Shown in pieces: positions 62-12,692 of a stretch of DNA of 12,692 bases. The stretch covers positions 1 to 12,692 of the IMG/VR virus record IMGVR_UViG_2617270948_000001, one strand, 5' to 3'. This DNA comes from a virus (Duplodnaviria > Heunggongvirae > Uroviricota > Caudoviricetes). Within the stretch, counting starts at the first letter, position 1. Each line of letters starts with the position of its first letter. The translations under genes were made by a program, and so were the position numbers. The notes beneath the pieces were generated by a model. It did not search any database, was not told the origin of the DNA, and saw only the letters and a program-made list of their open reading frames with translations.

Positions 62-1225
62 TTACACATCATTAGTACCTTCCTTATTTTTTGACTGGGA
101 CAAATTTGGGACCGATGGGTTCAGGATCGAGTCTATTTGCCGTGCGTGTTCGGTAAGGTGATTAGGTGCAAGGTGAGCATATCGACGAACCATTTCGATA
201 GACTCCCAGCCTCCCATTTCCTGTAACACTGACAACGGGACTCCGGCTTGAACCAGCCAACTTGCCCAGGTGTGTCTCAAGTCGTGAAATCTGAAATCAT
301 CAATACCAGCCCGTCTCAGCGCCGCTTTCCAGGCTGTGTTTGCGTCATACCGCATCTTCCTTACTGTTGGCGCTTTCGTTCCGTCTGGTTTGGTACAGCT
401 TTCCTTGTACACAAATACCCAACGGTGATGATTCCCGATTTGTTTTTTCAATACGCGACATGCAGTATCATTCAGCGCAACGCCAATTGCGCGGTTTGAT
501 TTACTCTCTTCCGGGTTTATCCATGCCACCCGGCGCTGCATATCTATTTGTTGCCATTCAAGGTTGATGATGTTCGAGCGTCTTAAGCCTGTTGCCAGTG
601 CAAATTCAACAACAGACTTTAATGGCTCCGGACATTCATCAATCAGCCTTTGTGCTTCATGGGGCTCCAGCCAGCGGATCCGTTTATTCTTTGGTTGAGG
701 CACTTTAATAATTGGTGCCTTATCCAGCATTTTCCATTCACGCTCTGCGGCTCTTAGTAGGGCCTTTATAAATGAAAGATGCGTAGCCTTCGTTGCAACG
801 GACGCTGGTTTTGGCGTGTATTCTGGAACAGGTTTCCCTTTTTTTCTGCATGCTTCTGCCCTGAGTTTCCAGTTTTCCTCATGACGCCGGTTCGTCATTT
901 TCTGCATTGCTGAATAAATTTTTGATTCAGTAATGTCTCTTAGTTGCATTCCTGCGAAATGTTGAAGCCAGAATCCGATCCGGCTTTTGTCATCGTCCAG
1001 TGATTTTTTATGTGCTTTCTCTTCAAGCCACCTGACACAAGCTTCCTCGAACGTTATATCAGGTATTTCACCAAGTTTGCTGACCCGCCATGCTTCAGCC
1101 TTTAGCTTGTCATGGAGTTCTGTCGCCTGCCTTTTGTCCTTTGTTCCAAGAGACTGTTTAAATCTTTTACCGTTCGGCAATGTGAAACTGGCGTACCATA
1201 TTTCACCTCTGCGGAAGAGTGACAT
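62..1225 (-). CDS. int: Tyrosine recombinase / phage integrase, P22-Int type (387 aa)
   Basis: ATG at 1225 preceded by GAGGA; TAA at 62-64. Protein begins [22 protein letters not shown] as recalled for P22 Int. C-terminal catalytic signature HDLRHTWAS ... VRRYAHL (HxxR and Tyr nucleophile). Adjacent to tRNA 3' end. Confidence 0.93.
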
Positions 1226-2916: not shown

Positions 2917-3070
2917 ACAGCCCCCGTTTATTATTTATCGCCTCAGCCAGCCGCTGTGCTTTCAGTGGATTTCTGATAACAGAAAGGCCGGGAAATACCC
3001 AGCCTCGCTTTGTAACGGAGTAGACGAAAGTGATCGCGCCTACCCGGATATTATCGTGAGGATGCGTCAT
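2909..3070 (-). CDS. Unlisted small ORF (53 aa, [53 protein letters not shown]) between exo and the methyltransferase
   Basis: ATG overlaps the exo TGA stop (ATGA), and its TGA overlaps the methyltransferase start (ATGACTGA). Below the ORF-track length cutoff. Occupies the slot of the small ORF downstream of exo in lambda. Confidence 0.4.
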
Positions 3071-3747
3071 CGCCATTGCTCCCCAAATACAAAACCAATT
3101 TCAGCCAGTGCCTCGTCCATTTTTTCGATGAACTCCGGCACCATCTCGTCAAAACTCGCCATGTACTTTTCATTCCGCTCAATCACGACATAATGCAGGC
3201 CTTCACGCTTCATGCGCGGGTCATAGTTGGCAAAGTACCAGGCATCTTTTCGTGCCACCCACATGCTGTACTGCACCTGGGCCATGTAAGCCGATTTTAT
3301 GGCCTCGAAACCACCGAGCCGGAACTTCATGAAATCCCGGGAGGTAAACGGGCATTTCAGTTCAAGGCCGTTGCCATCACTGCATAAACCATCGGGAGAG
3401 CAGGCGGTGCGCATACTTTCGTCGCGATAGATGATCGGGGATTCAATAACATTCACGCCGGAAGTGAACTCAAACAGGGTTCTGGCGTCGTTCTCGTACT
3501 GTTTTCCCCAGGCCAGTGCTTTAGCGTTAACTTCCGGAGCCACACCGGTGCAAACCTCGGCAAGCAGGGTGTGGAAGTAGGACATTTTCATGTCAGGCCA
3601 CTTCTTTCCGGAGCGGGGTTTTGCTATCACGTTGTGAACTTCTGAAGCGGTGATGACGCCGAGCCGTAATTTGTGCCACGCATCATCCCCCTGTTCGACA
3701 GCTCTCACATCGATCCCGGTACGCTGCAGGATAATGTCCGGTGTCAT
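3067..3747 (-). CDS. exo: Lambda exonuclease (Red-alpha, 226 aa)
   Basis: Near-identical over full length to lambda Exo as recalled ([40 protein letters not shown] ... GFVFGEQWR). Start overlaps bet stop by 4 nt. Confidence 0.96.
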
Positions 3748-4529
3748 GCTGCCACCTTCTGCTCTGCGGCTTTCTGTTTCAGGAATCCAAGAGCTTTTAC
3801 TGCTTCGGCCTGTGTCAGTTCTGACGATGCACGAATGTCGCGGCGAAATATCTGGGAACAGAGCGGCAATAAGTCGTCATCCCATGTTTTATCCAGGGCG
3901 ATCAGCAGAGTGTTAATCTCCTGCATGGTTTCATCGTTAACCGGAGTGATGTCGCGTTCTGGCTGACGTTCTGCAGTGTATGCAGTATTTTCGACAATGC
4001 GCTCGGCTTCATCCTTGTCATAGATACCAGCAAATCCGAAGGCCAGACGGGCACACTGAATCATGGCTTTATGCCGTAACATCCGTTTGGGATGCGACTG
4101 CCACGGCCCCGTGATTTCTCTGCCTTCGCGAGTTTTGAATGGTTCGCGGCGGCATTCATCCATCCATTCGGTAACGCAGATCGGATGATTACGGTCCTTG
4201 CGGTAAATCCGGCATGTACAGGATTCATTGTCCTGCTCAAAGTCCATGCCATCAAACTGCTGGTTTTCATTGATGATGCGGGACCAGCCATCAACGCCCA
4301 CCACCGGAACGATGCCGTTCTGCTTATCAGGGAAGGCGTAAATTTCTTTCGTCCACGGATTAAGGCCGTACTGGTTGGCGACGATCAACAATGCGATGAA
4401 CTGCGCATCGCTGGCATCACCTTTAAATGCCGTCTGGCGAAGAGTGGTGATCAGTTCCTGTGGGTCGACAGAATCCATGCCGACACGTTCAGCCAGCTTC
4501 CCTGCCAGCGTTGCGAGTGCTGTACTCAT
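3744..4529 (-). CDS. bet: Lambda Beta single-strand annealing protein (Red-beta, 261 aa)
   Basis: Matches lambda Bet as recalled ([66 protein letters not shown] ...), same length. Confidence 0.96.
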
Positions 4530-4534
4530 CCGTT

Positions 4535-4831
4535 TTATACCTCTGAATCAATATCAACCTGGTGGTGAGCAATGGTTTCAACCATGTACCGGATGTGTTC
4601 TGCCATGCGCTCCTGAAACTCAACATCGTCATCAAACGCACGGGTAATGGCTTTTTTGCTGGCCCCGTGGCGTTGCAAATGATCGATGCATAGCGATTCA
4701 AACAGGTGCTGGGGCAGGCCTTTTTCCATGTCGTCTGCCAGTTCTGCCTCTTTCTCTTCACGGGCGATCTGCTGGTAGTGACGCGCCCAGCTCTGAGCCT
4801 CAAGACGATCCTGAATGTAATAAGCGTTCAT
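4535..4831 (-). CDS. gam: Lambda Gam, short (GamS-length, 98 aa) form only
   Basis: [60 protein letters not shown] ... VDIDSEV matches lambda Gam from its internal Met. The upstream in-frame extension is closed by TAA at 4907-4909 and has no ATG. Confidence 0.92.
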
Positions 4832-5561: not shown

Positions 5562-5597
5562 AAAAGAAAACCCGGCACGGTGGCCGGGTTGTTTTTA
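5562..5597. terminator. Strong bidirectional intrinsic terminator (8-bp stem AACCCGGC/GCCGGGTT, loop acggtg, flanked by A-run and T-run)
   Basis: aaaagaaaaCCCGGCacggtgGCCGGGttgttttta; T-tract on either strand. Lies immediately 3' of the 316-aa minus-strand gene (stop at 5595-5597), ending the cI-cassette transcript before the PL region. Confidence 0.75.
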
Positions 5598-6545
5598 TAG
5601 CTCATTGTAAACAGCAATAGGCTCAATGAAATACTCATCAGAGTCAGGGGCGCAAAATGTTGACTCCAGATCAAAAAGGCTGTCATTCATATTCCAGACT
5701 GCACTGCGAATGCCGTTTAGTTCACGAGCCTCTGATTCCTGATTACCTTCAGACGTTGATGTACGCGTTATTATCCCTACGACTGTGAATGCAGAGGTCG
5801 TTCGACGAGAATATAACTTTACAAACATTTCTGGACTGATTTTAAGAAAATCTCTGATTAAGAATGAGGTGAATTTAATATCTTGCATTTTTTGTGATAT
5901 TTCTATTTCGTCACCATATGCGTAATCTAAAACAGAAGACAAATGCTCAAAGAATTTTTTCTGATTTGGAGATGTTAAATTATCAAGCTCACTTTTAATT
6001 TCTGCTTGTCTTGCCTTGATAATATTAAATTCATTGGATTTGGGTTTTATCGATTTCAGCATCGATTCTAGACTTTCTAATTCGTCATTTCGATGAACGA
6101 AATTAATAGCATAGTTAGTTTTACAGAAATTCTTAGCGGTATTTTTTAATTTATTATAGTCATTAAATTGAATTGGGCAGGTGATTTTAACAAAGCAATT
6201 AGCCTTAATTTTGTTCGAGTCGATCGGGGAAGTTATGTTAGACAGAATTCCTCTTTTGCTAAGTTCGTTTTCAAATTTCAGATAATGATAATCATGAGGG
6301 TTTAACACTGTTGATATTTTTTTTGTGTCACTCGTTTTACTTGAACTACTTTTTGTCTTTATTTCGACCGCATCTATATTTGAAAGAGTAGACTCTTTAT
6401 GCTCCATCGCGGATTGAATTACGCCCTCAAATAATTGAGAGCTTAAAGAGTAGACCTTCTCATAATCAATATAAATGATATTTTTTAACTGCATACCAAT
6501 TCCATTAGTGATATTTAAGTTGTTCTTTCTTTCTTTCAAAGTCAT
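5595..6545 (-). CDS. Hypothetical soluble protein (316 aa; possibly 299 aa from internal ATG at 6494), AT-rich cargo, no recognised family
   Basis: Long open frame in strongly AT-rich DNA unlike the flanking phage genes. Last gene of a three-ORF cassette co-oriented with cI. No Walker or other motif recognised by eye. Confidence 0.6.
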   Translation of the reverse strand: MTLKERKNNLNITNGIGMQLKNIIYIDYEKVYSLSSQLFEGVIQSAMEHKESTLSNIDAVEIKTKSSSSKTSDTKKISTVLNPHDYHYLKFENELSKRGILSNITSPIDSNKIKANCFVKITCPIQFNDYNKLKNTAKNFCKTNYAINFVHRNDELESLESMLKSIKPKSNEFNIIKARQAEIKSELDNLTSPNQKKFFEHLSSVLDYAYGDEIEISQKMQDIKFTSFLIRDFLKISPEMFVKLYSRRTTSAFTVVGIITRTSTSEGNQESEARELNGIRSAVWNMNDSLFDLESTFCAPDSDEYFIEPIAVYNEL

Positions 6546-6681
6546 CGCTATTTGACTTTCTGACCCTTTCTATGTGCATTAAAGTTTCCTGTGCATTTTT
6601 GAGGTTTTTTCTTGAAAACCATGCCAATACAGCAGGTATCACAACAGCTATTATGGATAAAATAGTAATTAAGTACTCCAT
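6505..6681 (-). CDS. Unlisted small membrane peptide (58 aa, MEYLITILSIIAVVIPAVLAWFSRKNLKNAQETLMHIERVRKSNSDDFERKKEQLKYH), single N-terminal TM helix
   Basis: ATG at 6679-6681 lies 3 nt after the TAA of the upstream 138-aa gene, whose last codons (CAG GAG TAA) supply an AGGAG Shine-Dalgarno. 3' end overlaps the 316-aa ORF start by 41 nt in another frame. Below the ORF-track cutoff. Confidence 0.45.
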   Translation of the reverse strand: MEYLITILSIIAVVIPAVLAWFSRKNLKNAQETLMHIERVRKSNSDDFERKKEQLKYH

Positions 6682-6684
6682 AAT

Positions 6685-7101
6685 TTACTCCTGCGCCACT
6701 ACTTTGTTATTGATAATAGCACACCTGACTGAATTTTGTCCAATGTATAAGGATATACCACAAGTAATAGCGACTAATATGCGAGTCGTATTCATGTTAA
6801 GGATGTTATCAGCCAGCATAACAATAATGTAAATTATAGAAAAAAGTACAATGAAAACAATCGATATGGTAGTGTTTATAATAATATTGTTTTCAGTTTG
6901 CTTGCTGGGTTGGCCCATTCCGTAATAAATACTGGATATTTGTATGGCAAAGCCAAAACATATCAACTCAGTTATATTGATCAGCTCTATGTTTTTATTA
7001 GTGATGAAATAAGCAATAAATCTAATAAAGATAGGGATTGCTCCAATGATTACTGTTCCGCACCACCACTTGAAATAATCACTATGAATATTATGTTGCA
7101 T
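6685..7101 (-). CDS. Hypothetical integral membrane protein (138 aa, about four predicted TM helices), first gene after cI
   Basis: Hydrophobic segments WWCGTVIIGAIPIFIRFIAYFI, ELICFGFAIQISSIYYG, ISIVFIVLFSIIYIIVMLA, ILVAITCGISLYIG. ATG at 7101, 49 bp downstream of the cI stop. AT-rich. Size and topology resemble RexB but no sequence similarity is claimed. Confidence 0.6.
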   Translation of the reverse strand: MQHNIHSDYFKWWCGTVIIGAIPIFIRFIAYFITNKNIELINITELICFGFAIQISSIYYGMGQPSKQTENNIIINTTISIVFIVLFSIIYIIVMLADNILNMNTTRILVAITCGISLYIGQNSVRCAIINNKVVAQE

Positions 7102-7149: not shown

Positions 7150-7839
7150 TTACCCATGCTTCCTGTACGTCTGCGGCATGCTCCCGATGACTTTCCCGAA
7201 AATGAATACCCGGTTCATCTCGTCTTTCTCGATCGGGTCCCACGGTGAGTAACTCTTGTTATCAGAGATAACGAGCAGCTTATCCTTCATCATTTGCAGG
7301 CGCTTTACATGGGCTGTGTCGTCGTACAGAAACGCATAGATACCATCACCGTCGAAAGATTTAACAGTGATATCAACGAACAAAAGGTCACCTGGTTCGA
7401 TCGTTCCTGACATGCTGTCACCGCGTACGTTAATGATGCGGATATTTTCTGCCTTCCTACCATCGAACATGTGACGAGCATCGTCAAACGAGTACTCAAC
7501 CGAGCGTAGAACTTCTACAAACTCACGGTTGATGACTCCCGGCCCGGCACTCACTTCTATATCAAGAACGTCAATCTTAAAGTATTTGGAATGGCTGACA
7601 GTTGATTGTATTGGTTGCACTGTACTGTCTGACATATTTCCAACGCCAGAAGATAACCATTCTGCGCGCACACCCAAAGCGTTCGCGATCTCCACGATTT
7701 TAGTTGTTTGATTAGCTTTCCCTGTTTCGATTTTCTGAATAGCAGCCTGGCTAACCCCGACCAAATCCCCAAGCGCCTTTTGTGTAAGGCCTCGCGCTAA
7801 TCTGGCTTCTTTAAGTCTTTCTGAGAGTGTTGTTTTCAT
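7150..7839 (-). CDS. CI-like prophage repressor (229 aa from ATG at 7839): N-terminal XRE-type HTH plus C-terminal LexA-like S24 autopeptidase domain
   Basis: HTH segment LTQKALGDLVGVSQAAIQKIETGK; Ala-Gly cleavage site in VSAGPG; catalytic Ser in RGDSM and Lys in HVKRL. The listed ORF start at 7905 runs through the operator region. ATG at 7839 has almost no leader, consistent with a PRM-type leaderless transcript. Confidence 0.85.
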   Translation of the reverse strand: MKTTLSERLKEARLARGLTQKALGDLVGVSQAAIQKIETGKANQTTKIVEIANALGVRAEWLSSGVGNMSDSTVQPIQSTVSHSKYFKIDVLDIEVSAGPGVINREFVEVLRSVEYSFDDARHMFDGRKAENIRIINVRGDSMSGTIEPGDLLFVDITVKSFDGDGIYAFLYDDTAHVKRLQMMKDKLLVISDNKSYSPWDPIEKDEMNRVFIFGKVIGSMPQTYRKHG

Positions 7840-7931
7840 AGTCCAAATGTACAACCAAGGTTTTATTCCATCAAACGAAAATGGTTGTTGACTAAAAACA
7901 ACCATAGTTTTAATCTTGATTCAAATTAACC
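7840..7931. promoter_or_regulatory. OR-like immunity switch: divergent PRM (minus) and PR (plus) promoters with a 25-bp perfect palindromic operator
   Basis: Palindrome ATGGTTGTT-gactaaa-AACAACCAT at 7881-7905. PR: TTGACT (7888-7893), 17 bp, TAATCT (7911-7916). PRM on minus strand: TTGATG (complement 7869-7874), 17 bp, TACATT (complement 7846-7851), about 7 nt before the cI ATG. Extra ACAACC/GGTTGT half-sites at 7851-7856 and 7937-7942. Confidence 0.55.
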
Positions 7932-8243: not shown

Positions 8244-8783
8244 ATGCAACCACTTACATACCAACAGACTAGCGGATTTAGCCCGACTGCGGTGATAAAT
8301 CGTTCTCAAACAAAACAGGTGCCAGGCCACGAAAAAATCCGTGATGCCGTCCGCGCCTGGTCGGCTGTAGATAATCAGGATGTCGTTGCCACACTCATTG
8401 TGAATGAGTATCGGGAGCAGGGCGGCGGCACCATCGATTTCCCTGATGATGTCAGCCGTGCACGCCAGAAGCTGTTCCGCTTCCTCGATAACAAATTCGA
8501 TTCTGAAAAATACCGAAATAACGTGCGTGAACTGACCCCGGCAATTCTGGCTGTACTACCGCTGGAATATCGCGGCCACCTGGTTGAGCAGGATAGCTTC
8601 ATGGCTAGGCTGGCTGAAATGGAAAAGGAACTCAGTGAGGCAAAACAGGCTGTCATTCTCAACGCACCACGCCACCAGAAACTGAAGGAGATGAGTGAAG
8701 GCATTGTGTCGATGTTTCGAGTGGACCCGGATCTGGCAGGTCCATTGATGGCGATGGTCACCACCATGCTGGGGGCAATATGA
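8244..8783 (+). CDS. YdaT-like protein at the cII position (179 aa)
   Basis: AGGAG 7 nt upstream of ATG at 8244. Segments NEYREQGGG and LTPAILAVLPLEYRGHL resemble recalled Rac YdaT (EEYLRQGGG, LIPAILAILPRELRHRL). Follows a YdaS/DicC-like cro as in Rac-type immunity regions. No similarity to lambda CII. Confidence 0.5.
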   Translation: MQPLTYQQTSGFSPTAVINRSQTKQVPGHEKIRDAVRAWSAVDNQDVVATLIVNEYREQGGGTIDFPDDVSRARQKLFRFLDNKFDSEKYRNNVRELTPAILAVLPLEYRGHLVEQDSFMARLAEMEKELSEAKQAVILNAPRHQKLKEMSEGIVSMFRVDPDLAGPLMAMVTTMLGAI

Positions 8784-8869
8784 CATGTTCAGAAATGGCG
8801 AAAGCCGGTCTGCTGGAACAGAACCGACTTTCAGGTGCAAATCGTAACGCACTCATTGCGGGAGGAATT

Positions 8870-9799
8870 ATGGCAAACACTGCTGAGATATTCAATTTTC
8901 CAGTGCCGGATGCGGCACAAAAGGAGCCGCGCGTGGCAGATCTCGATGATGGTTATACGCGCATTGCAAATGAGTTGCTGGAAGCTGTGATGCTGGCCGG
9001 ATTAACACAGCACCAGCTTCTGGTCTTCCTGGCTGTCATGCGCAAAACATATGGCTTTAATAAAAAACTGGATTGGGTGAGCAACGAGCAACTTTCCGAG
9101 TTGACCGGGATATTGCCGCACAAGTGTTCTGCTGCAAAAAGTGTTCTGGTAAAGCGTGGGATTTTTATTCAGAGCGGGCGGAATATAGGCATTAATAATG
9201 TGGTCAGTGAATGGTCAACATTACCCGAATCAGGTAAGAAAAATAAAGTTTACCTGAAAGAGGTAAATTTACCTGAATCAGGTAAGAAAAGTTTACCCAA
9301 ATCAGGTAAAGGCACTTACCCGAATCAGGTAAACACAAAAGACAAACTAACAAAAGACAATATAAAACCTTATTCGTCCGAGAATTCTGGCGAATCCTCT
9401 GACCAGCCAGAAAACGATCTTCCTGTGGTGAAACCGGATGCTGCAATTCAGAGCGGCAGCAAGTGGGGGACAGCAGAAGACCTGACCGCCGCAGAGTGGA
9501 TGTTTGACATGGTGAAGACCATCGCGCCATCAGCCAGAAAACCGAATTTTGCAGGGTGGGCTAACGATATCCGCCTGATGCGTGAACGTGACGGACGTAA
9601 CCACCGCGATATGTGTGTACTGTTCCGCTGGGCATGCCAGGACAACTTCTGGTCCGGTAACGTGCTAAGTCCGGCCAAACTCCGCGACAAGTGGACCCAA
9701 CTCGAAATCAACCGTAACAAGCAACAGGCAGGCGTGACAGCTAGCAAACCAAAACTCGACCTGACAAACACAGACTGGATTTACGGGGTGGATCTATGA
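8870..9799 (+). CDS. O: Replication initiator O (lambda O family, 309 aa from ATG at 8870; listed ORF start at 8780 is probably an upstream in-frame extension)
   Basis: GGAGG 4 nt before ATG at 8870. MANTAEIFNF ... ADLDDGYTRIANELLEA ... RKTYGFNK parallels lambda O N-terminus (MTNTAKILNF ... ADLDDGYARLSN ... RKTYGWNK). Iterons lie inside the gene. Stop overlaps P start (ATGA). Confidence 0.9.
   Translation: MANTAEIFNFPVPDAAQKEPRVADLDDGYTRIANELLEAVMLAGLTQHQLLVFLAVMRKTYGFNKKLDWVSNEQLSELTGILPHKCSAAKSVLVKRGIFIQSGRNIGINNVVSEWSTLPESGKKNKVYLKEVNLPESGKKSLPKSGKGTYPNQVNTKDKLTKDNIKPYSSENSGESSDQPENDLPVVKPDAAIQSGSKWGTAEDLTAAEWMFDMVKTIAPSARKPNFAGWANDIRLMRERDGRNHRDMCVLFRWACQDNFWSGNVLSPAKLRDKWTQLEINRNKQQAGVTASKPKLDLTNTDWIYGVDL
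9221..9333. repeat. Replication origin iterons: five copies (one degenerate) of an 18-bp dyad TTACC(C/T)(G/A)AATCAGGTAA(G/A), followed by an AT-rich stretch at 9334-9370
   Basis: Copies at 9221-9238, 9249-9265 (degenerate), 9269-9286, 9293-9310, 9316-9333, spaced about 20-28 bp, then cacaaaagacaaactaacaaaagacaatataaaacc. Inside the O gene, as in ori-lambda. Encodes repeated PESGKK in the O linker. Confidence 0.75.
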
Positions 9800-10497
9800 A
9801 AAACATCGCCGCACAGATGATTAACTTTGACCGTGAGCAGATGCGTCGGATCGCCAACAACATGCCGGAACAGTACGACGAAAAGCCGCAGGTACAGCAG
9901 GTAGCGCAGATCATCAATGGTGTGTTCAGCCAGTTACTGGCAACTTTCCCGGCGAGCCTGGCTAACCGGGACCAGAACGAACTGAACGAAATCCGCCGCC
10001 AGTGGGTTCTGGCTTTCCGGGAAAACGGGATCACCACGATGGAACAGGTTAACGCAGGAATGCGCGTAGCCCGTCGGCAGAATCGACCATTCCTGCCATC
10101 ACCCGGGCAGTTTGTTGCCTGGTGCCGGGAAGAAGCATCCGTTACCGCCGGGCTGCCAAACGCCAGCGAGCTGGTTGATATGGTTTACGAGTATTGCCGG
10201 AAACGTGGCCTGTATCCGGATGCAGAGTCTTATCCGTGGAAATCAAACGCGCACTACTGGCTGGTTACCAACCTGTATCAGAACATGCGGGCCAATGCGC
10301 TGACTGATGCGGAATTACGGCGCAAGGCTGCCGATGAACTGGCCTGTATGACAGCGCGAATTAACCGTGGTGAGGCGATACCTGAACCAGTAAAACAACT
10401 TCCTGTCATGGGCGGGAGACCGCTTAATCGTGTTCAGGCTCTGGCGAAGATCGCAGAAATCAAAGCGAAGTTTGGGCTGAAAGGAGCAAGTGTATGA
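9796..10497 (+). CDS. P: Replication protein P (lambda P, DnaB helicase loader, 233 aa)
   Basis: Essentially identical to lambda P as recalled (MKNIAAQMINFDREQMRRIANNMPEQYDEKPQVQQVAQIINGVFSQLLATFPASLANRDQNE ... KFGLKGASV). Confidence 0.96.
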   Translation: MKNIAAQMINFDREQMRRIANNMPEQYDEKPQVQQVAQIINGVFSQLLATFPASLANRDQNELNEIRRQWVLAFRENGITTMEQVNAGMRVARRQNRPFLPSPGQFVAWCREEASVTAGLPNASELVDMVYEYCRKRGLYPDAESYPWKSNAHYWLVTNLYQNMRANALTDAELRRKAADELACMTARINRGEAIPEPVKQLPVMGGRPLNRVQALAKIAEIKAKFGLKGASV

Positions 10498-10667
10498 CGG
10501 GCAAAGAGGCAATTATTCATTACCTGGGGACTCATAAGAACTTCTGTGCGCAGGACGTTGCCGCGGTAACAGGCGCAACCGTAACCAGCATAAATCAGGC
10601 TGCGGCTAAAATGGCGCGGGCAGGAATCCTGGTCGTTGATGGTAAGGTCTGGCGAACGTTTGTTTAA
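10494..10667 (+). pseudogene. ren: Truncated ren (57 codons versus about 96 in lambda); marks the point where lambda-like sequence ends
   Basis: ATG overlaps P stop (ATGA). MTGKEAIIHYLGTHKNFCAQDVAAVTGATVTSINQAAAKMARAGILVVDGKVWRT matches the lambda Ren N-terminus, then diverges (FV-stop) into AT-rich unrelated sequence. Below ORF-track cutoff. Confidence 0.6.
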
Positions 10668-10813
10668 CGGTTAGCTACTCAGGATGATAGGGCGGGGCAA
10701 GTGAGTATGAAGCGGATTTTCAGGAATGCCATCAGAGTTTGGAAATAAAGTGGGTTTTCTAGTGGCAAGAGACTTGATAATATTTAGTTCTTTGAATCCA
10801 AGGAGATAGGGTT

Positions 10814-11308
10814 ATGAGAAAATTTATTTTAGCCTTTGTTATAAGTGCCTCGTTTACAGCAAATGCTGGTGTAGAGAAGTTAGGGCCGTGGATAACAAAG
10901 TCTGAGATAAATAAAATGACTGATCAGACTGACTTTGTGGCTCTTAATTTATCACCAGATTCATATAACAAAGCAGGTACTGATCGTGCAACTTCACTGG
11001 TGTTGCGTTGTAGTGATAACAAAACAGATGTCTATTTATCATTCAATGATTATATGGGTTCGGACAACCCAAGAATTACAGTACGGTTAGATGGCGGAAA
11101 GCCGGTCAAGAGTGTTTGGGGAGGTGGGGAAGGCGGTGATTCTGCATTTGCTCCACAACCAATACAATTTATAAAGACCTTGGCTAAGCATAAAAAAGCT
11201 ATTTTTGGGTTTGAACCTTATGGATCAACTATGCAAGTAGTTGAGTTTGACTTGTCTGAGATTGATAAGGTTGTGGAAAAAATTTCACAGTCTTGCAATT
11301 GGAAATAA
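10814..11308 (+). CDS. Hypothetical secreted/periplasmic protein (164 aa) with Sec signal peptide; AT-rich cargo
   Basis: AGGAG 8 nt before ATG. N-terminus MRKFILAFVISASFTANA-GVE has a positive n-region, hydrophobic core and an A-x-A cleavage site. Two Cys (C66, C162) could form a disulfide. No family recognised. Confidence 0.6.
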   Translation: MRKFILAFVISASFTANAGVEKLGPWITKSEINKMTDQTDFVALNLSPDSYNKAGTDRATSLVLRCSDNKTDVYLSFNDYMGSDNPRITVRLDGGKPVKSVWGGGEGGDSAFAPQPIQFIKTLAKHKKAIFGFEPYGSTMQVVEFDLSEIDKVVEKISQSCNWK

Positions 11309-11325
11309 CAAAAAAATATCATATG

Positions 11326-11352
11326 AACCCAGTTGGCTCTGGGTTTTTTATT
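11326..11352 (+). terminator. Intrinsic terminator after the secreted-protein gene (stem AACCCAG/CTGGGTT, loop ttggct, then TTTTTTATTT)
   Basis: Perfect 7-bp stem immediately followed by a T-run, 18 bp after the stop codon. Confidence 0.65.
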
Positions 11353-11704
11353 TCTGTTGTCTATAATGTATTCATAATTTTTACTGGGATACAGTGCACA
11401 TAAAATCCCAATTGCGGTAGGACGATAACTGGATCAGGTGGAGGCACTTACGCAAGAATTGATTGTATTAATTTGCATAGAGCAACGCGAAGTTATTTAT
11501 AAATTAACTGATATAGAGTACTAGATGTAATCCGAACCGGTTATGATTCGTCACCAATTTTGCAAGAGGCTGGGTAGGTAAGCTATTGGATACCGTAGGT
11601 AGCAAAAATATAGAAGGAGGGGAAGAATTGCTAAACTCGAGCATTCACTTAAATCTGAGTTATTTATTGTTAAGATATAATACACTTTGAATAATAGAGG
11701 CTAT

Positions 11705-12109
11705 ATGACAACGAAAATAAGCAAAGATGATAAACATCTGCTTGATCCTTATTTAAAATGGCTTGCAAACAAGAAGCTAATGGTTGCCTTCTGGTTGGTG
11801 CTAATGATATGTGGTTGCATATATGCATATATAGAAAATGATTGGTCACTTCTTCCCCGATTCGGATGTTTAGGCATAATGATTGGCACATTGCTTACTC
11901 TTTCTCCGCTTTTTGCAGAAGGTATCTACCTGTCAAGGCGAGAAGCATTTAGTTTTGGTTCGGTACAACAAGATGGGAGCGTCACCTCAACCTCTGAAAA
12001 AGGTCGTGCAGTATCAAGGAATATTCTATGGGGTGTTATCATTATAATCATATCATCGATAATAAATGCATTTGGTGACTTAATAATGGTCACGATTATG
12101 AATGGTTAA
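11705..12109 (+). CDS. Hypothetical small membrane protein (134 aa from ATG at 11705; the listed ORF start at 11687 is a TTG), about three TM helices
   Basis: AGAGG 4 nt before ATG. Hydrophobic segments LMVAFWLVLMICGCIYAYI, LGIMIGTLLTLSPLF, ILWGVIIIIISSIINAFGDLIMVTI. AT-rich. No family recognised. Confidence 0.5.
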   Translation: MTTKISKDDKHLLDPYLKWLANKKLMVAFWLVLMICGCIYAYIENDWSLLPRFGCLGIMIGTLLTLSPLFAEGIYLSRREAFSFGSVQQDGSVTSTSEKGRAVSRNILWGVIIIIISSIINAFGDLIMVTIMNG

Positions 12110-12365
12110 AATAATTAATATTTATGATATTAGTATTATATAACTTAGTATGCTGTTTAATTAAGTCACCGCAGACTTGACACTTGGCGGTAACTTCTGC
12201 GCTAAACGGTGACGTTTATACGCACATACAATCTAAATCCTCTTCTCCCTCCACAGATGCAGAAATATACCTGCGATTTTTTGCATTCGGTGTGTAGTGG
12301 CATAGTGAATTTGGCCACCTGAATAGAGGTGATATCATCACCTCATAGTCAAAACAGGTGACATT

Positions 12366-12677
<312 letters not shown>

Positions 12678-12692
12678 TTGAGAAACTCAGGG

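Follow-up and report, generated by a model that had tools for sequence, protein, structure and literature searches.

We wanted to know how two AT-rich genes came to lie at the right end of a phage-derived sequence and whether they belong together. The window (the whole stretch of DNA analysed, 12,692 nucleotides of the IMG/VR record IMGVR_UViG_2617270948_000001) carries them between phage genes and an IS3-family element, and an earlier note had taken them for one accessory module, for example a secreted effector or inhibitor with a membrane partner, possibly brought in or deleted by IS activity. The lower GC content claimed for the region is real: it reaches 37.4% at 10668-12290 vs 49.0% for int-gam and 49.0% for cI-P, and GC3 is 0.30 in gene 1 and 0.33 in gene 2 vs 0.60 for P (0.50-0.60 for phage genes). 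Both genes also proved to be genuine, each with a Shine-Dalgarno sequence (AAGGAG at 10800-10805, 8 nt before the ATG, for gene 1; AGAGG for gene 2), and their products are, as announced, a secreted protein with a signal peptide and a small membrane protein with three hydrophobic helices. Neither matched a housekeeping family. What was called a module consists of two separate stacked cassettes, one encoding the exported protein and the other the membrane protein. We put at roughly 70% the probability that these cassettes were acquired independently and stand in tandem in the ren-ninB/ybcN slot of a prophage, that the IS came later, and that envelope protection is their likeliest role. The evidence presented below shows how the two genes are arranged, that they are mobile and that they are independent of each other; the coordinates are collected in Table 1.

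Table 1. Features of the right part of the window (positions in the window)
Feature	Position	Strand	Evidence or remark
ren 5' part, 57-codon ORF with premature TAA	10494-10667	+	phrog_142 Ren-like, 1.9e-20
ren 3' remnant, decayed, 46% GC, not foreign DNA	10668-10757	+	alignment with intact ren
Putative gene 1 promoter, extended -10 type	10755-10783	+	TGnTA conservation
Gene 1 candidate moron, extent common to ~260 E. coli prophages	10758-11385	+	blastn match to L003 ends at 11385
Gene 1, Sec-exported periplasmic protein of 164 aa, VasI-domain (PF11319), IalB-like beta-sandwich fold	10814-11308	+	
Gene 1 intrinsic terminator	11325-11352	+	8-bp stem hairpin 11325-11346 and T-run
AT-rich filler, 289 bp	11386-11674	.	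specific to the present arrangement
Gene 2 mobile unit	11675-12153	+	77% nucleotide match over the exact span in a P4-like island (L028/L029)
Gene 2 CDS, 134 aa, three TM helices	11705-12109	+	AGAGG at 11696-11700
Conserved nin-region junction, start of a small ORF (MQKYTCDFLHSV...) cut by the IS	12158-12292	+	
IS3-family left end (TG...)	12293-12692	+	orfA 12366-12677, PF01527

The DNA from 10758 to 12292 occupies a cargo slot, flanked by ren and ninB/ybcN, in a lambdoid prophage that has thrW as its integration site. A thrW fragment (1-44) is the sole Rfam match over the whole window. The island had been drawn from 10668, which is no boundary. Up to ~10658, the ren gene of the window does not differ from the intact one of NADC1036, and the alignment stays recognisable, with a 1-nt deletion, to ~10757 before it is lost. 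In sister prophages, RefSeq describes this gene as 'protein ren, frameshifted; internal stop'. The AT-rich part of the claim stands from there on, and the alignment places the beginning of the foreign DNA near 10758, where insertion of the first cassette destroyed the 3' end of ren. When the ren-ybcN interval was compared across sister prophages, five different contents were found, among them an AAA-ATPase plus RloB, a 472-aa protein, an acyltransferase-like gene, and gene 1 plus others. The same 1.6 kb is present with 98.8% identity in the isolated phage IdasGreatGrand, and the island also occurs in intact-looking E. coli prophages. The idea of horizontally acquired accessory cargo of deviating composition is borne out. 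This conservation in IS-free relatives is what the earlier note would have counted against its proposal had the region been native chromosome; it is indeed found in such relatives, but as phage DNA.

In these respects the slot resembles known prophage hotspots (those of P2/P4 and, in lambdoid phages, the slots of the immunity and nin regions). Like them, it keeps a constant place among conserved genes, holds unrelated AT-rich cargo that can be exchanged and includes defence genes (the AAA ATPase plus RloB; SIR2 in another slot), and has conserved junction sequences at the cassette edges. Unlike the defence cargo catalogued from such hotspots, neither gene 1 nor gene 2 matches a PADLOC family, and no defence model was matched by either protein. 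On the right side, copies of the junction with 82-88% identity lie upstream of ybcN or of a P22AR-C module in other prophages, and phage IdasGreatGrand and S21 have two copies each. An IS3-family element does adjoin the gene pair, its left end lying directly after this junction and the window ending inside it, and many E. coli genomes contain copies that match it at 100% identity starting from 12293. IdasGreatGrand differs from the window after 12292; this phage and all eight sampled E. coli prophages have the same flanks up to that position, followed by a Bro-N/P22_AR_C gene and no IS. Since the island is present where the junction holds no IS, it is not defined by the IS and was not brought in by it, and the proposed delivery by IS activity fails on the same observation. 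The IS3-family element was inserted later, into the conserved junction that follows the second cassette.

Gene 1 carries signals of its own. The parts of a putative promoter are TTTTCT (10755-10760), a 17-nt spacer with TG at 10775-10776, and TAATAT (10778-10783), the -35 hexamer being weak. When upstream regions taken from four genomic contexts are aligned, the TGnTA located ~30 nt upstream of the start proves invariant, and the Klebsiella copies of gene 1 have ~70 nt before the ATG in common whatever gene stands upstream. The putative promoter matches the consensus weakly and was missed by a two-hexamer scan, which found none directly upstream of gene 1; it is proposed from the conserved TGnTA. 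The hairpin of the terminator has a folding energy of -11.4 kcal/mol (z = -2.8 vs shuffles), and a hairpin with a T-run comes just after the stop codon in every gene 1 homologue examined, with differing stem sequences. Complete E. coli genomes in which gene 1 follows ren number 260. Homologues with 54-67% identity were found in Klebsiella, Serratia and further contigs, in the tail region, where they sit between a tail chaperone gene (DUF6246) and the tape measure gene, sometimes alone in this slot and sometimes with other cargo. Variable position, deviating composition and an own terminator, all marks of a moron, are found for this cassette. It would be a classic moron, made up of the gene with its Shine-Dalgarno sequence, its own terminator and probably an extended -10 promoter, and these transcription signals suggest that gene 1 can probably be expressed from a repressed prophage.

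The closest known counterpart of this arrangement is gene 15 of HK97; what defines a moron, where HK97 gp15 is encoded and what it does are given in PMC3594210, which reviews Juhala et al. 2000 and Cumby et al. 2012. Like gene 1, gene 15 is a lone gene for an envelope protein, deviates in GC content, has its own promoter (putative in gene 1) and terminator, and lies between conserved phage genes. The two proteins have no sequence similarity, gp15 being a small inner-membrane protein of YebO type and the gene 1 product a soluble periplasmic beta-sandwich, and the moron occupies the ren-nin slot here but the tail operon in HK97.

Between the two genes, a strong terminator and a 350-bp AT-rich spacer had been announced. 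The terminator and the AT-richness (35% GC) were found, but the spacer measures 396 bp (11309-11704). Its filler part matches only S21, H14, 2018-05-2CC and phage IdasGreatGrand and holds no convincing gene, and no Rfam RNA family was detected in the 396 bp. For gene 2, ATG 11705 is preferred as the start over TTG 11687, since it gives the 134-aa form found in the RefSeq annotation. The protein is predicted to be N-in/C-out, the K/R-rich N-terminus and the loop 73-106 being placed inside by the positive-inside rule, and its C-terminus ends within TM3 (...LIMVTIMNG). The AlphaFold model has a pLDDT of 73.5. The family has 28 invariant columns and the conserved motifs GTLLTLSPLF and SSxINAFGD. 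It remains nameless: gene 2 has no match in Pfam, PHROG, PADLOC or PDB, a PHROG scan of all 30 family members returned no family, and none of the 64 clusters reached by a profile search is named. We also considered a holin and rejected it, given the C-terminus inside TM3 with no charged tail, the early/nin location outside a lysis cassette and the absence of a holin-family match.

Homologues of gene 2 without an adjoining gene 1 were found in Enterobacter, Pantoea, Citrobacter, E. coli, a P4-like island and a Pseudomonas integron. The Pseudomonas relative is an integron cassette with attC-like repeats on either side, and its neighbours are cassettes of MafI2, SMI1_KNR4 and SUFU type. The second cassette encodes a three-helix inner-membrane protein of a small unnamed family whose members move as single genes among prophage early regions, a P4-like island and integron arrays. 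No credible gene 2 promoter was found within the window, and no terminator comes just behind the stop codon, the one hairpin at 12258-12275 being weak; here the gene is probably transcribed by read-through from upstream.

As to function, we infer that the cell envelope is where both proteins work. Our best guess, by analogy, is that they may protect the lysogen there by blocking the entry of DNA from superinfecting phages or of envelope-targeting toxins. The model draws on HK97 gp15, which lies in the same tail-region slot as the gene 1 homologues, and it is this shared location, together with the envelope localisation, that would favour superinfection exclusion. Gene 2 might alternatively be an ordinary early lytic gene of the nin region, directed for example at a host membrane or division target, expressed upon induction only and of no benefit to the lysogen. 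In Enterobacter and Pantoea the homologue is packed within an early operon, 28-84 nt after the preceding gene, and overlaps the next, DNA-pol-III-theta-like gene. This packing suggests a lytic-cycle role for gene 2 rather than expression from the prophage, and the absence of a credible promoter of its own in the window agrees with it. We nevertheless consider a purely lytic gene unlikely, since relatives of gene 2 also occur in the P4-like island and in a promoterless chromosomal integron cassette, both without a phage lytic programme.

Envelope protection could also be directed against toxins only, one or both genes being orphan immunity genes against pore-forming colicins or CDI/T6SS effectors and not anti-phage genes. 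MafI2, SMI1_KNR4 and SUFU are families known as polymorphic-toxin immunity proteins, and the Pseudomonas relative of gene 2 lies among their cassettes; the size and the three-helix N-in/C-out topology of gene 2 resemble those of E1-type colicin immunity proteins, and the gene 1 product is small and periplasmic with a conserved Cys pair. However, what lies next to a gene in an integron says little about its function, no colicin or immunity family was matched in Pfam and no cognate toxin gene lies nearby, so that we hold immunity genes of this kind to be quite unlikely.

The gene 1 protein itself begins with MRKFILAFVISASFTANA|G, which satisfies the AXA rule; a lipoprotein was ruled out, there being no lipobox. 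Two cysteines (66 and 161) are invariant, as are 48 alignment columns of its family, and the members of both gene families are 42-98% identical to the window proteins. PDB sequence searches with the family profiles of both proteins gave nothing below E 0.4, and a BFVD Foldseek search with gene 1 found uncharacterised phage proteins only. With the invasion-associated protein B (IalB) of Bartonella (PDB 3dtd), the identity is 9% and there is no Pfam IalB match; IalB is chromosomal and gene 1 phage-borne. The RefSeq name of gene 1 is T6SS-associated protein TagO. TagO/VasI (PF11319, TIGR03360; V. cholerae VCA0118, Edwardsiella EvfG) is homologous to gene 1 over the whole mature protein, and a signal peptide and a periplasmic location are expected for both, but the N-terminus of gene 1 is ~35-50 residues shorter.

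Taken at its word, this name would make gene 1 a genuine T6SS accessory protein with which the prophage tunes or hijacks the T6SS of its host. PF11319 scores above the gathering threshold on gene 1 (29.0 bits vs 26.5, model positions 78-184). The family profile collects 1129 proteins at E<=1e-10, sampled members reach 47-67 bits on PF11319, and VasI-domain proteins of ~200 aa are found at 1e-24 to 1e-26 with the whole mature domain covered. On the equivalog model TIGR03360, however, gene 1 stays far below the cut-off (16.1 bits vs 124.2), its ~200-aa relatives obtain 34-51 bits only, and the contexts examined, all of them early or tail regions of prophages, have no tss or other T6SS gene near gene 1. 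A true T6SS component is thus very unlikely. A 2026 review (PMC13584744) lists the role of TagO/VasI as unknown, so the name explains nothing for gene 1. Judged by these profiles, gene 1 belongs to the VasI-domain superfamily and is not the equivalog TagO.

Both genes can be tentatively joined in one broader proposal, which we think unlikely to hold as a whole. Gene 2 would then represent an uncatalogued single-gene family of three-helix inner-membrane protection proteins, carried from genome to genome by integron cassettes, P4-like islands and hotspots of prophages and acting in phage-entry exclusion or in immunity to membrane-targeting toxins, and gene 1 a phage-borne branch of VasI/TagO that binds a periplasmic machine such as a T6SS or the tip of a phage tail. 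If this were true, gene 1 could offer the first functional handle on the T6SS accessory family VasI/TagO.

The two-gene functional module itself does not hold, since outside one E. coli lineage the genes are found separately in the dozens of loci sampled. Of the 260 complete genomes of E. coli that have gene 1, 2 contain the whole island and another one a fragment from within gene 1 to within gene 2, and conserved co-occurrence or co-transcription across taxa, as would be expected of a functional pair, was not found. In E. coli contigs with the exact gene 2 allele, gene 1 lies upstream in all eight, hence a local functional link in that lineage may exist. A coupled effector or inhibitor and membrane partner, brought in or being deleted by IS3 activity, is extremely improbable: the genes are adjacent on the same strand, both AT-rich and both for envelope proteins, gene 1 is always upstream of the present allele, and IS-linked deletions do occur near the region in some strains (2018-05-2CC and L040), but the genes are separate in every other genus examined, gene 2 is absent from ~257 of the 260 genomes, a terminator and unrelated filler stand between them, the flanks are identical in an IS-free phage, and the window holds a single IS end, not the two of a composite transposon.

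Altogether, these two tandem cassettes open no long-standing question, and they show that the IS is a bystander and that adjacency to an IS can mislead. The annotation of gene 1 is corrected in that the RefSeq name TagO, for a prophage moron, is unsupported beyond domain-level homology. In lambdoid prophages of the thrW type, the interval from ren to ninB serves as a cargo slot in which recognised defence genes are found as well, and their presence there makes both envelope proteins reasonable and cheap candidates for exclusion or immunity screens.

The window prophage is lambdoid and integrated at a tRNA. An Rfam scan of the window placed a tRNA 3' end at positions 1-44, and in E. coli NADC1036, the closest complete genome, whose prophage is 99.2% identical, this tRNA is thrW (tRNA-Thr), beside proA.

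Features of the prophage and putative promoter of gene 1 (window positions)
Feature	Position	Strand	Remark
Integrase	62-1225		
exo, bet, gam	3067-4831		
Second AT-rich island	5595-7101	-	
cI-like repressor	7150-7905		
cro-like and YdaT/cII-like genes			between the cI-like repressor and O
O	8780-9799		
P	9796-10497		PF06992, 208 bits
ren fragment	10494-10667		57 codons
Putative gene 1 promoter	TG 10775-10776, TAATAT 10778-10783		TTTTCT 17 nt upstream

The second AT-rich island (33% GC), between the kil/gam side and the cI repressor, encodes a DUF6414 protein (PF19952, 66.9 bits) and two small membrane ORFs without family (6505-6681 and 6685-7101). Its slot looks like a defence hotspot because SIR2, ASCH, HipA-kinase or DUF7946 genes are found there in sister prophages.

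All the elements that the earlier note had read in the island under study (10668-12290) are present, and its observation was confirmed. The GC content is indeed low (37.4% versus 49% for the phage core), and third-position GC is 0.30-0.33 in genes 1 and 2 versus 0.50-0.60 for O and P. Both announced Shine-Dalgarno sequences were found: AAGGAG lies 8 nt before the ATG of gene 1 (10814-11308, 164 aa), and AGAGG precedes ATG 11705, the best start of gene 2 (end 12109, 134 aa), with which the RefSeq annotation agrees. The expected terminator is a hairpin at 11325-11346 (-11.4 kcal/mol, z = -2.8), the AT-rich spacer exists with a length of 396 bp instead of 350 bp, and the bordering IS3-family element starts at 12293 with TG (orfA, 12366-12677). 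In family alignments, both ORFs keep many invariant residues at 42-98% identity, and judging from their sequences they are genuine genes.

To define the left edge, the window was aligned with the NADC1036 prophage, in which ren is intact, and with the gene 1-bearing VTB97448v prophage. The window and the NADC1036 sequence are identical up to ~10658; the window then switches to gene 1-type sequence, in which the 3' third of ren is decayed (a stop codon and a 1-nt deletion). Because this decayed ren is still recognisable to ~10757, the proposed boundary at 10668 does not hold and foreign DNA starts at ~10758. By these alignments, the window is a recombinant inside ren (10494-10760). Wherever the annotation of a gene 1-bearing prophage was inspected (S21, VTB97448v), ren is listed as a pseudogene. 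On the right, homology with other prophages and a phage genome extends to 12292.

The two genes had been suggested to form one accessory module; they occur apart, as separate cassettes. The segment 10668-11385, containing gene 1 and its terminator, was detected in 260 of 5426 complete E. coli genomes and is annotated beside ren in 29/30 of the matches listed, and gene 2 is also present in only two of the 260. A third genome, 2018-05-2CC, has only the fragment 11065-11948, whose ends lie within gene 1 and gene 2. The match to the common gene 1 type stops at 11385. Gene 1 homologues (54-67% identity) in Klebsiella pneumoniae, Serratia marcescens and further genomic and metagenomic contigs belong to another phage architecture, in a slot between the tail assembly chaperone (DUF6246) and tape measure genes, alone or with other cargo (KilA-N, Arc, P22 antirepressor or YafO); no gene 2 homologue lies beside them in the contigs examined. 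Conversely, no gene 1 was found beside the gene 2 homologues of Enterobacter, Pantoea, Citrobacter, other E. coli, P4-like or Pseudomonas contexts. These homologues are located in Enterobacter nin regions (60% identity, overlapping a DNA-pol-III-theta-like gene), in the PL-side early region of Pantoea prophages, in Citrobacter and other E. coli prophages, and in a P4-like island beside proA (77% identity). Since the nucleotide match with the P4-like island spans 11675-12153 and no more, the preceding 289 bp (11386-11674), in which Rfam detected no RNA family, are filler specific to the window's arrangement. Finally, a Pseudomonas homologue (39% identity) is an integron cassette, bracketed by two attC-like 74-nt repeats (CCTAAC…GTTAGG; family of 15) downstream of an integrase, and the adjoining cassettes code for MafI2, SMI1_KNR4 and SUFU-type proteins. 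These results show that the prophage cargo slot contains two single-gene units that move independently, one encoding an exported protein and the other an inner-membrane protein.

Several features were observed around gene 2. The chromosomal integron array of Pseudomonas sp. MT-1 (AP014655.1; 4400-12405 of our locus L026) has at least 15 attC-like 74-nt repeats; the gene 2 homologue is one of its cassettes, along with MafI2, SMI1_KNR4, SUFU-like and chorismate mutase genes. In Enterobacter and Pantoea prophages (L010-L013, L020-L022), the theta-like (HOT-type) gene always overlaps and follows the gene 2 homologue; in E. coli prophages a theta-like gene is instead located ~1.6 kb downstream. A 20-codon ORF (11627-11689, + strand, TTG start, MLNSSIHLNLSYLLLRYNTL) with a strong GGAGG 7 nt upstream stops 15 nt before the gene 2 ATG. 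Its available copies are all ~99% identical, and it may be an upstream leader ORF or have arisen by chance.

Delivery by the IS had also been suggested, and the same island exists IS-free in the isolated phage IdasGreatGrand and in E. coli prophages. Its complete 1623 bp are 98.8% identical to a segment of IdasGreatGrand between the P/ren and nin genes, and 98.5% identical in prophages of E. coli S21 and H14. A look-up of protein sequences matched the gene 2 protein exactly in 276 index blocks of public assemblies; among the matches listed, all eight islands lie within an apparently complete lambdoid prophage, and what comes next is a Bro-N/P22_AR_C gene rather than an IS. Among sister prophages sharing this backbone, the interval from ren to ybcN (ninB) differs in content: an AAA ATPase with RloB, a 472-aa protein encoded on the opposite strand, an acyltransferase-like gene, or gene 1 and then a 66-aa ORF. 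These comparisons identify the island as cargo of the phage, carried in a variable slot, and not of the IS. The final 135 bp ahead of the IS (12158-12292) form a conserved junction sequence, copies of which (82-88% identity) precede ybcN or the P22AR-C module, twice in IdasGreatGrand and twice in S21; this junction is probably a homologous-recombination substrate for cassette exchange. A small ORF (MQKYTCDFLHSV…) starts in the junction and is interrupted by the IS, an element common in E. coli, of which 100% identical copies exist elsewhere. Given the IS-free copies and the interrupted junction, the island was there before the IS, which is thus shown to be secondary. The ~130-nt junction stands at the 5' edge of different nin-region modules (8491-8626 and 10495-10622 in phage L004) and contains a weak hairpin with a T-run (12258-12280). 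The island is only partly retained in E. coli 2018-05-2CC (L002, 5797-8049) and in L040. In 2018-05-2CC, a truncated dsdA adjoins the left side of the remnant, and at its right side gene 2 is cut by another IS3-family element. Some strains thus show IS-linked decay in the prophage region, at positions other than the window's.

Morons are defined as extra DNA of deviating GC between conserved phage genes, with their own promoter and terminator permitting expression from the prophage (PMC3594210). Gene 1 matches in position and composition. A hairpin and T-run follow its stop codon in 7/7 aligned copies, with differing stem sequences. About 70 nt upstream are common to three Klebsiella copies, whatever the preceding gene, and TGnTA, ~30 nt before the ATG, is the sole invariant upstream motif in an alignment of four contexts. 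We infer a putative extended -10 promoter there, which a two-hexamer promoter scan did not report.

The gene 1 protein is secreted as predicted, with a textbook Sec signal peptide (…FTANA|G); a lipoprotein was rejected, no lipobox being present. Its C-terminal 107 residues score just over the PF11319 (VasI) threshold in Pfam (29.0 vs 26.5 bits), and PHROGs assigns it to phrog_1848 (2e-70), yet it stays below the NCBIfam T6SS VasI equivalog (16 bits vs a cut-off of 124). Its family profile found 3676 relatives among 1.84 billion representatives. Many are ~200 aa long and match the whole mature domain at 1e-24 to 1e-26; those sampled reach 47-67 bits on PF11319, yet fall under the equivalog cut-off. 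The PF11319 match and the equivalog failure therefore place the protein in a short phage-borne branch of the VasI-domain superfamily. A T6SS component was rejected, the cut-off being missed and no tss gene lying near any gene 1 copy in the contexts examined. TagO/VasI function is listed as unknown in a 2026 review (PMC13584744).

Gene 2 does encode a membrane protein, with three hydrophobic helices, positive charges at the N-terminus and in the 73-106 loop, a predicted cytoplasmic loop that is disordered (model pLDDT 73.5), and conserved motifs GTLLTLSPLF (helix 2) and SSxINAFGD (helix 3). No relative was found in Pfam, PHROG, NCBIfam, PADLOC or PDB, and a profile search gave only 64 clusters, all from Gammaproteobacteria and none named.

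In a lysogen, gene 1 would be transcribed from its own putative promoter up to 11325-11352, gene 2 would be read by upstream transcription, and both proteins would act at the envelope. By analogy, our preferred but tentative reading is that they may protect the lysogen there, in the manner of exclusion. The nearest model, HK97 gp15, was the first moron to be described; it keeps the DNA of superinfecting phages from entering (PMC3594210), and it occupies exactly the chaperone-tape measure slot of the gene 1 homologues. The integron neighbours of the Pseudomonas relative of gene 2 hint at a serious alternative, immunity to envelope-targeting toxins. A purely lytic early function of gene 2 is plausible because its homologues are packed inside early operons elsewhere. 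A holin was dismissed, gene 2 having neither a charged tail nor a holin genomic location.

Altogether, two mobile cassettes in a prophage slot, with a secondary IS, is an account to which we give a probability of about 85%. Of the earlier interpretation, accessory cargo with exported and membrane proteins stands, and the two-gene module and IS delivery fall. The island is moron cargo in a lambdoid hotspot, of a kind already known. Its main value lies in correcting the annotation and in providing two inexpensive candidates for exclusion or immunity screening.
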